Source of the DNA: Escherichia coli
GTDB taxonomy: Bacteria > Pseudomonadota > Gammaproteobacteria > Enterobacterales > Enterobacteriaceae
DNA: 64,000 nt
Reading direction: 5' to 3' (one strand)
Assembly: GCF_003334305.1 (NCBI RefSeq)
Contig: NZ_QOWS01000005.1
The notes under the pieces were generated by a model that was not told where the DNA came from, did not search any database, and was given only the letters and a program-made list of their open reading frames with translations. This document shows, one piece after another, positions 15,461 to 16,157 of the stretch (within the stretch, counting starts at the first letter, position 1; each line of letters begins with the position of its first letter). The position numbers and the translations under genes are program-made.

Positions 15461-16157
15461 ATCGCGGGAAAAAGTACTTTACCTGGAACTCGAAAATATT
15501 GCTGTAAAGTAACGAATAATCCAGCGGAATAGAGTTACTGTCCACAGCCTGGGTCTGAATTTTAAGTATGGGATCCCGTGGGCTGATCCGTAAAATACTG
15601 GCGATTTCTGGGGTAGGAAAAGTAGGGGAGAAAGTTTCAAAGGTGCCAATGATTTTGATCCCGCATTCATTCTCAATATATGAAAATTTGGATTTTTGCA
15701 TATGTGACACGGTTAAATCAGGAAAACGTGCTACTGACATCCACCTTTCTTCTAATTGTGCTGCATTATCCTCAATGAATCGCAGTCTCTTTATGTAATA
15801 AACCTGCTCACCAGTCACTAAATTCAGCTCAGTCGCAATAGTGGGTGAAGCATCCTGCACTTCAAATTTCATAATCTGACTCCCTGCCTCTTTGCCGCTT
15901 TAATGCGCAATTTCACTGAAACTGTTCATGTGATCAATGTGTGCAACAAAATTCTTTTTTTGAATGTATGTTCCTGAACCATGCTTTCTGTGAATAATTC
16001 CTTCGCCTTCCAGCAAGGATAATGCCTTACGCAGGGTATTACGCGAAACATTATAACGAACAGCGAGTTCCGCTTCTGACGGCAACAAATCACCAACATG
16101 CCATGAATTGCCATTGATTTCGGATTTAAGTAAGCGGGCAATCTTTTGAAAAATCAC
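15459..16157 (-). pseudogene. GntR/HutC-family regulator (HTH + UTRA effector domain) interrupted by an in-frame TAA
   Basis: ORFs 15900..16157 (GntR-type HTH: SEAELAVRYNVSRNTLRKALSLLEGEGII) and 15459..15872 (UTRA-like C-terminal domain) are in the same frame, separated by a TAA at 15900-15902; read-through would give a roughly 232-aa HutC-type regulator. Confidence 0.7.

Follow-up and report, generated by a model that had tools for sequence, protein, structure and literature searches.

The locus and its genes

The stretch of DNA analyzed here (64,000 nucleotides from Escherichia coli, hereafter the window) contains a six-gene accessory island situated between two core-genome flanks, eamA (14515–15414, plus strand; RefSeq annotation of strain H15) and marB (21693–21911, minus strand; ORF and RefSeq annotation). 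The G+C content is ~0.39–0.45 across the island versus ~0.47–0.51 on both sides, and positions 6400–25300 of the window are identical to E. coli strain H15 (NZ_CP010178). The gene next to eamA, and convergent with it, is that of a bgcR-type GntR/HutC regulator (15459–16157, minus strand), which is divergent from the other five genes of the island. All five of these are intact ORFs on the plus strand, none of them flagged by RefSeq, and they comprise the lactose/cellobiose-family phosphotransferase system (PTS) genes for IIB (16356–16667; ORF, RefSeq annotation, and NCBIfam), IIC (16782–18104; TIGR00410, 335 bits against a cut-off of 236), and IIA (18132–18443; RefSeq annotation and NCBIfam), followed by a carbohydrate (LamB-like) porin gene (18499–20172; ORF, RefSeq annotation, and NCBIfam) and a 6-phospho-beta-glucosidase gene of family GH1 (20197–21636; NF007154, 1034 bits against a cut-off of 624).

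The bgc operon and its regulator BgcR are reportedly the subject of a 2009 study by Neelakanta, Sankar and Schnetz (Appl Environ Microbiol 75:2284), in which the operon is said to include a porin as well. In gene content, as given by RefSeq annotation and NCBIfam and set beside the description in PMC3585215, the island agrees with the cryptic bgc operon and its regulator with BgcR, a match of gene content as distinct from one of compared sequence. BgcR is described as a positive regulator of a five-gene PTS operon for cellobiose, arbutin, and salicin (PMC3585215, citing Neelakanta et al. 2009), and bgc is one of four cryptic beta-glucoside operons of E. coli (PMC4488073).

Differences between the window and strain H15 appear farther downstream. 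The ECSE_1600-family autotransporter at 44312–49732 (plus strand) is one intact ORF of 1806 codons in the window, while its H15 counterpart is frameshifted according to RefSeq, and an indel difference between the two lies somewhere between 37931 and 51637. The match to H15 ends just past hipBA, at ~51637, and positions 51637–64000 differ: past hipBA, H15 carries a pair of integrases together with hypothetical genes and a subunit of a type I restriction system, and other ORFs occupy this part of the window. On this sequence comparison, a variable insertion site adjoins hipBA within the same clonal lineage.

The regulator gene and its premature stop codon

The reading frame of the regulator opens on the minus strand with a GTG at 16157 and is ended after 85 codons by a TAA at 15902–15900. 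Past this stop the frame runs unbroken through nine sense codons (15873–15899, minus strand; AGC GGC AAA GAG GCA GGG AGT CAG ATT) to an ATG at 15872–15870, which opens an ORF of 137 codons ending at a second TAA (15461–15459). Read through the stop, the minus strand from 16157 to 15459 specifies a GntR/HutC product of 232 codons plus the terminal stop, with the premature TAA as codon 86. The earlier note on this DNA had described a HutC/GntR regulator split by a single in-frame TAA, and this description is confirmed to the base, including the frame, the nine sense codons, and the Met at 15870–15872.

In the intact allele, the GntR winged helix-turn-helix domain (Pfam PF00392) matches residues 4–65 with an E value of 3e-19, and the UTRA effector and dimerization domain, which has the chorismate-lyase fold (PF07702), matches residues 87–218 with an E value of 7e-30. 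The regulator also aligns over its full length with the structures of YvoA, YydK, and DasR. Members of the HutC subfamily carry both domains on one polypeptide, an arrangement retained by no fewer than 1,989 further E. coli genomes; in the window copy the frame is broken at codon 86, after a fragment of 85 amino acids (15903–16157, minus strand) that contains the whole of the winged helix-turn-helix domain. The window copy is a disrupted member of the HutC subfamily, i.e., a pseudogene, by its frame, its Pfam domains, and the annotation in RefSeq, where the identical copy in strain H15 is already flagged as a pseudogene with an 'internal stop'. In this sense, the copy with the stop at Lys86 (K86*) is nothing unusual, being a pseudogene specific to one lineage that RefSeq has flagged in an accessory operon known before.

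Ancestral codon and distribution of the stop allele

Strains with an intact gene (e.g., strain 1943, WP_000577184.1) have AAA (Lys) as codon 86. Compared with the allele of strain 1943, the window differs at only two of the 699 positions of the gene: A256T on the gene strand (window position 15902), which turns AAA into the premature TAA (15900–15902, minus strand; alignment with intact alleles), and C413G (window position 15745), which turns ACG into AGG and gives T138R (15744–15746, minus strand). Strains with AAA encode a single protein of 232 amino acids, identical to the window product apart from codon 86 and T138, and the two ORFs of the window are therefore no chance juxtaposition. The orthologue comparison that the earlier note had asked for thus shows a sense codon to be ancestral and the orthologues to be single genes, so that a natural two-gene arrangement fails as an explanation.

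Allele counts were obtained by megablast with 55-nt queries centered on the single-nucleotide polymorphism (SNP), under the constraint that every 28-mer seed include the variant base. The TAA allele was found in 9 of 5,426 complete E. coli genomes and the AAA allele in at least 1,989, a count that is a lower bound because neighboring SNPs block seeding in some haplotypes. The locus itself is present in ~2,551 of the 5,426 genomes, and K86* accounts for ~0.4% of the carriers among complete genomes. T138R occurs in exactly the same nine complete genomes and is private to them; either change alone is found in no genome. Over 24 kb around the locus, the nine genomes with TAA are also the nine best matches to the window (~100.0% identity), with the next genomes at 99.7%, and their sources are diverse (orangutan, echidna, chicken, humans, and a sink). 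In a collection of 15 billion proteins, the exact products of 85 and 137 amino acids are found on 723 and 686 public contigs, respectively.

Taken together, the alignments and counts show an intact ancestral state, a point mutation that created the stop, and independent assemblies that all belong to one clade. By this evidence from sequence, K86* is a real mutation of single origin that has been inherited vertically in a clone that is rare but has spread widely. The 0.3% divergence from the nearest relatives predicts just such a number of substitutions (two in 699 bp), and there is consequently no sign of accelerated decay of the gene.

Other lesions in the same gene

Short products falling in the same protein clusters were traced back to their DNA, and their lesions sit on other haplotypes. 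Nonsense alleles were found at four further codons of bgcR, namely E82* (L011), Q94* (L007), K123* (L010), and R126* (L009), and one haplotype (L008) has lost its start through a change from GTG to GTA. Frameshifted products derive from lesions near codon 116 (P0025) and near codon 69 (P0027). The gene is evidently dispensable and often lost. Length differences within a 901-bp match had also suggested H23, H26, and H35 as further pseudogenes, and all three were rejected, being called intact by RefSeq: the indels lie outside the coding sequence, or at the stop codon with the protein unchanged (H26), and that of H35 alters only the last three codons. In strain S1-INA-02-B (L006), a 1-bp deletion at nt 690 of bgcR (codon 230) gives a longer protein of 239 amino acids with a new C-terminus in place of the last three residues (WP_000577192.1), a product treated as intact by RefSeq.

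Position of the cut relative to the NagR structures

The closest solved homologue of the regulator is NagR/YvoA of Bacillus subtilis (2wv0), matched by phmmer at residues 2–209 with an E value of 4e-22, 82 bits, and a numbering offset of +9. Structures of this GntR/HutC-subfamily protein are available as PDB entries 2wv0, 4u0v, 4wwc, and 4u0y. In NagR, the isolated DNA-binding domain (DBD) consists of residues 1–75 and the interdomain linker of approximately residues 79–85; the phosphate and sugar of the effector are bound by two groups of residues, namely Ser88/Phe89/Thr90, where helix alphaE1 begins, and Arg133/Arg135 in strand betaE2 (PMC4333415). The positions that contact the effector are conserved in the alignment, with S79-F80-S81 of BgcR corresponding to Ser88/Phe89/Thr90 and R124/R126 to Arg133/Arg135. 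This correspondence suggests that the effector of BgcR is a sugar phosphate, plausibly a phospho-beta-glucoside made by the PTS.

Codon 86 of BgcR aligns with residue 95 of NagR, which follows helix alphaE1 and lies ~10 residues beyond the linker; this places the stop inside the effector domain, though before the Pfam match to UTRA. The earlier note had put the cut between the helix-turn-helix and effector domains; this holds for the Pfam boundary (GntR 4–65, UTRA 87–218), but by alignment to NagR the cut falls, structurally, just inside the effector domain. By homology, the N-terminal fragment would carry the winged helix-turn-helix, the linker, and alphaE1 with S79-F80-S81, and the ORF from Met96 (15459–15872, minus strand) would carry the rest of the pocket with R124/R126, i.e., a UTRA domain that lacks its first helix.

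The control region

The regulator gene and the divergent PTS operon are separated by a control region of 198 bp (16158–16355), which shows no difference from its counterpart in strains whose regulator is intact; no compensating promoter change in the lineage with TAA was seen in 16158–16355 when aligned with two intact-regulator haplotypes (L002 and L004). It contains a CRP-like site, TGTGATCAATGTACCA (16272–16287, plus strand), with two mismatches to the consensus; the haplotypes share it in all but one strain. A scan of the whole window with the CRP consensus gave 182 matches versus ~240 expected, without enrichment, and the site is for this reason treated as a candidate only. The inverted repeat CTGTTATATACCAG (16331–16344), a palindrome that resembles the dre-like operators of the HutC family and is invariant in 11 haplotypes, is a candidate operator, which we infer to be that of BgcR. 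It lies between a candidate -10 element, TATGAT (16309–16314), and the start codon of the IIB gene. This -10 element was picked by eye, and a sigma-70 scan of the control region gave no plus-strand promoter; since the assignment is by eye only, the arrangement cannot decide between an activator and a repressor.

Read on the bgcR strand, two stretches of the control region are related motifs, CTGGTACATTGATCACAG (16272–16289), which overlaps the CRP-like site, and ACTGGTATATAACAG (16331–16345), which covers the dre-like palindrome. Both begin with CTGGTA and end with ACAG, and they are candidate BgcR and CRP sites. They are conserved across diverged haplotypes, apart from a single change in CTGGTACATTGATCACAG in one strain (L007).

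Predicted consequences of the stop and alternative explanations

Translation from the native GTG would stop after 85 residues and would yield a monomeric winged-helix domain without the UTRA domain required for dimerization and effector binding. The isolated DBD of NagR folds and recognizes its operator, with an affinity in the nM range compared with pM for the dimer, i.e., 10^3–10^4-fold weaker, and the authors of that work argue that a loss of affinity of this size is equivalent to the induced, non-repressing state (PMC4333415). By analogy, operator binding by the BgcR fragment would be weakened ~10^3–10^4-fold, and the fragment would be effectively null, probably without function at native expression levels. 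A DNA-binding piece blind to its effector, as envisaged in the earlier note, is thus reasonable insofar as such domains fold and bind DNA in NagR, but the weaker binding makes it probably null here. The UTRA fragment of 137 amino acids, if translation were re-initiated at Met96, would lack both the DNA-binding domain and the helix that helps to hold the sugar phosphate.

BgcR is reported to act with CRP in activating the bgc promoter, in an operon that is already silent in most strains. With K86*, the operon would no longer be inducible, or evolvable to a Bgc+ state without reversion, even with its five structural genes intact. Given a cryptic operon and a regulator that reportedly acts positively on it, the most likely outcome is a failure of activation rather than constitutive expression. 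The best overall explanation of the locus, and one that can be held with considerable confidence, is an inherited change from AAA to TAA (Lys86*) in bgcR, with a probable loss of function and an operon that would no longer be activatable.

Regulators of the HutC family are typically repressors, and one alternative is that BgcR keeps the divergent PTS operon repressed as long as no sugar phosphate is bound, in which case K86* would have made the operon constitutive, subject to CRP. The closest characterized homologues (NagR/YvoA and DasR) are indeed repressors, the models for HutC, PhnF, and the trehalose repressor match the protein, and the dre-like palindrome just upstream of the IIB start, downstream of the -10 element chosen by eye, occupies a repressor-like position; the NagR data, moreover, indicate that repression is already lifted when affinity drops 10^3–10^4-fold (PMC4333415). 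Set against this, the promoter and operator assignments are putative, the promoter scan was without a plus-strand sigma-70 match, and the operon is cryptic and silent even when the regulator is present (PMC4488073). Loss of repression, which was among the outcomes offered in the earlier note, finds no support in the available literature, where BgcR is described as the positive regulator of a cryptic operon (PMC3585215, PMC4488073), and a lost repressor is rather unlikely.

A further possibility concerns the evolutionary cause of the lesion and not its mechanism, namely that loss of BgcR has been selected, for example by the avoidance of costly or harmful uptake of plant aryl-beta-glucosides. 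Such selection would fit the seven or more inactivating lesions that bgcR has acquired independently on different haplotypes, and the structural genes that remain intact in the lineage with K86*. However, among hundreds of thousands of E. coli assemblies, any gene that can be dispensed with should show several independent nonsense alleles, K86* is confined to the small fraction of carriers given above, and the two substitutions in the gene equal the background divergence from the nearest relatives. Repeated loss of bgcR at this number of assemblies is expected under neutrality and is by itself no sign of selection, and adaptive inactivation is considered unlikely.

The gene could also persist as a regulator in two pieces, through termination at the TAA and re-initiation 27 nt downstream at Met96. 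The nine codons between the stop and Met96 contain a Shine-Dalgarno-like element, AAGAGGCAGGGAG (15880–15892, minus strand), which lies inside the coding sequence with a spacing of 7–9 nt to the ATG that is fit for a restart; its predicted duplex with the anti-Shine-Dalgarno sequence (-8.7 kcal/mol) is among the strongest 1.2% for the ATGs of the window and exceeds that of the native start (-3.9). Translation of the UTRA fragment by re-initiation at Met96 may thus occur, and some residual activity is conceivable. Both ORFs are predicted by gene callers, isolated DBDs of NagR fold and show specific operator binding in the nM range, and constructs consisting of UTRA alone have been crystallized (3l5z, 3lhe, 4zsb). 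The same Shine-Dalgarno-like sequence is, however, present in intact alleles and was therefore not selected for a restart; the cut also parts the residues of the effector pocket, S79-F80-S81 from R124/R126, and the allele is rare (9 of ~2,500 carriers), with many other lineages carrying clearly destructive lesions. That the pieces re-associate, or that the free winged helix-turn-helix acts as a regulator blind to its effector, is highly improbable. The claim that K86* is not null, because stop and restart yield an operator-binding winged helix-turn-helix of 85 amino acids and a separate UTRA protein of 137, with the former or the pair rewiring expression of the bgc PTS operon in this lineage, is very unlikely; if true, it would show that a one-component regulator can be divided in nature into two parts that both function. 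In strains with an intact bgcR, the internal start might yield a UTRA-only product.

A sequencing or assembly error hiding an intact AAA codon, another reading raised in the earlier note, is refuted, with a negligible chance of being correct, since the one point for it is that a single-base difference fits this type of error, while the same base was recovered in nine independently assembled complete genomes from different laboratories, hosts, and countries, is linked to the second private SNP (T138R), underlies the exact fragment proteins on ~700 independent public contigs, and reflects the replacement of an A by a T in CATAAAAG (the window has CATTAAAG) as opposed to an error in homopolymer length. 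Programmed readthrough or recoding was rejected, the ancestral codon being an ordinary AAA and the allele being rare and without a conserved recoding context.

Under the preferred explanation of an inherited loss of BgcR function, the split regulator matters little beyond annotation, as a genuine pseudogene confined to a single rare lineage of E. coli. Its beta-glucoside operon is expected to be locked in the off state and not to be constitutive. K86* may be of some use for marking the lineage, or to those who study bgc regulation and need a natural bgcR-null allele.

Comparison with known systems

NagR and BgcR share the same two-domain architecture and conserved positions for effector contact. 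They differ in the sense of their regulation, with NagR being a repressor of N-acetylglucosamine (GlcNAc) genes and BgcR reportedly an activator of beta-glucoside genes. In view of their distant similarity, the two are homologues and not orthologues.

To our knowledge, no other beta-glucoside system of E. coli has a GntR-type regulator: chb is controlled by the AraC-type ChbR, asc by the LacI-type AscG, and bgl by the antiterminator BglG. The island in the window resembles bgc in its GntR-type regulator and five-gene operon, with PTS IIB, IIC, and IIA genes of the lactose/cellobiose family and a phospho-beta-glucosidase, and in its accessory distribution across about half of E. coli. It differs from the published bgc locus in that the regulator carries K86* and T138R, whereas the published regulator is intact and is reported to activate the promoter. 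The many independent knockouts of bgcR fit the known erosion of cryptic beta-glucoside loci in E. coli. As in the erosion of bgl (Sankar et al. 2009, PMC2646131), a silent, horizontally acquired sugar locus gathers lineage-specific inactivating mutations; unlike in bgl, the lesion described here affects a GntR-type regulator devoted to the operon, in a lineage whose structural genes have stayed intact.
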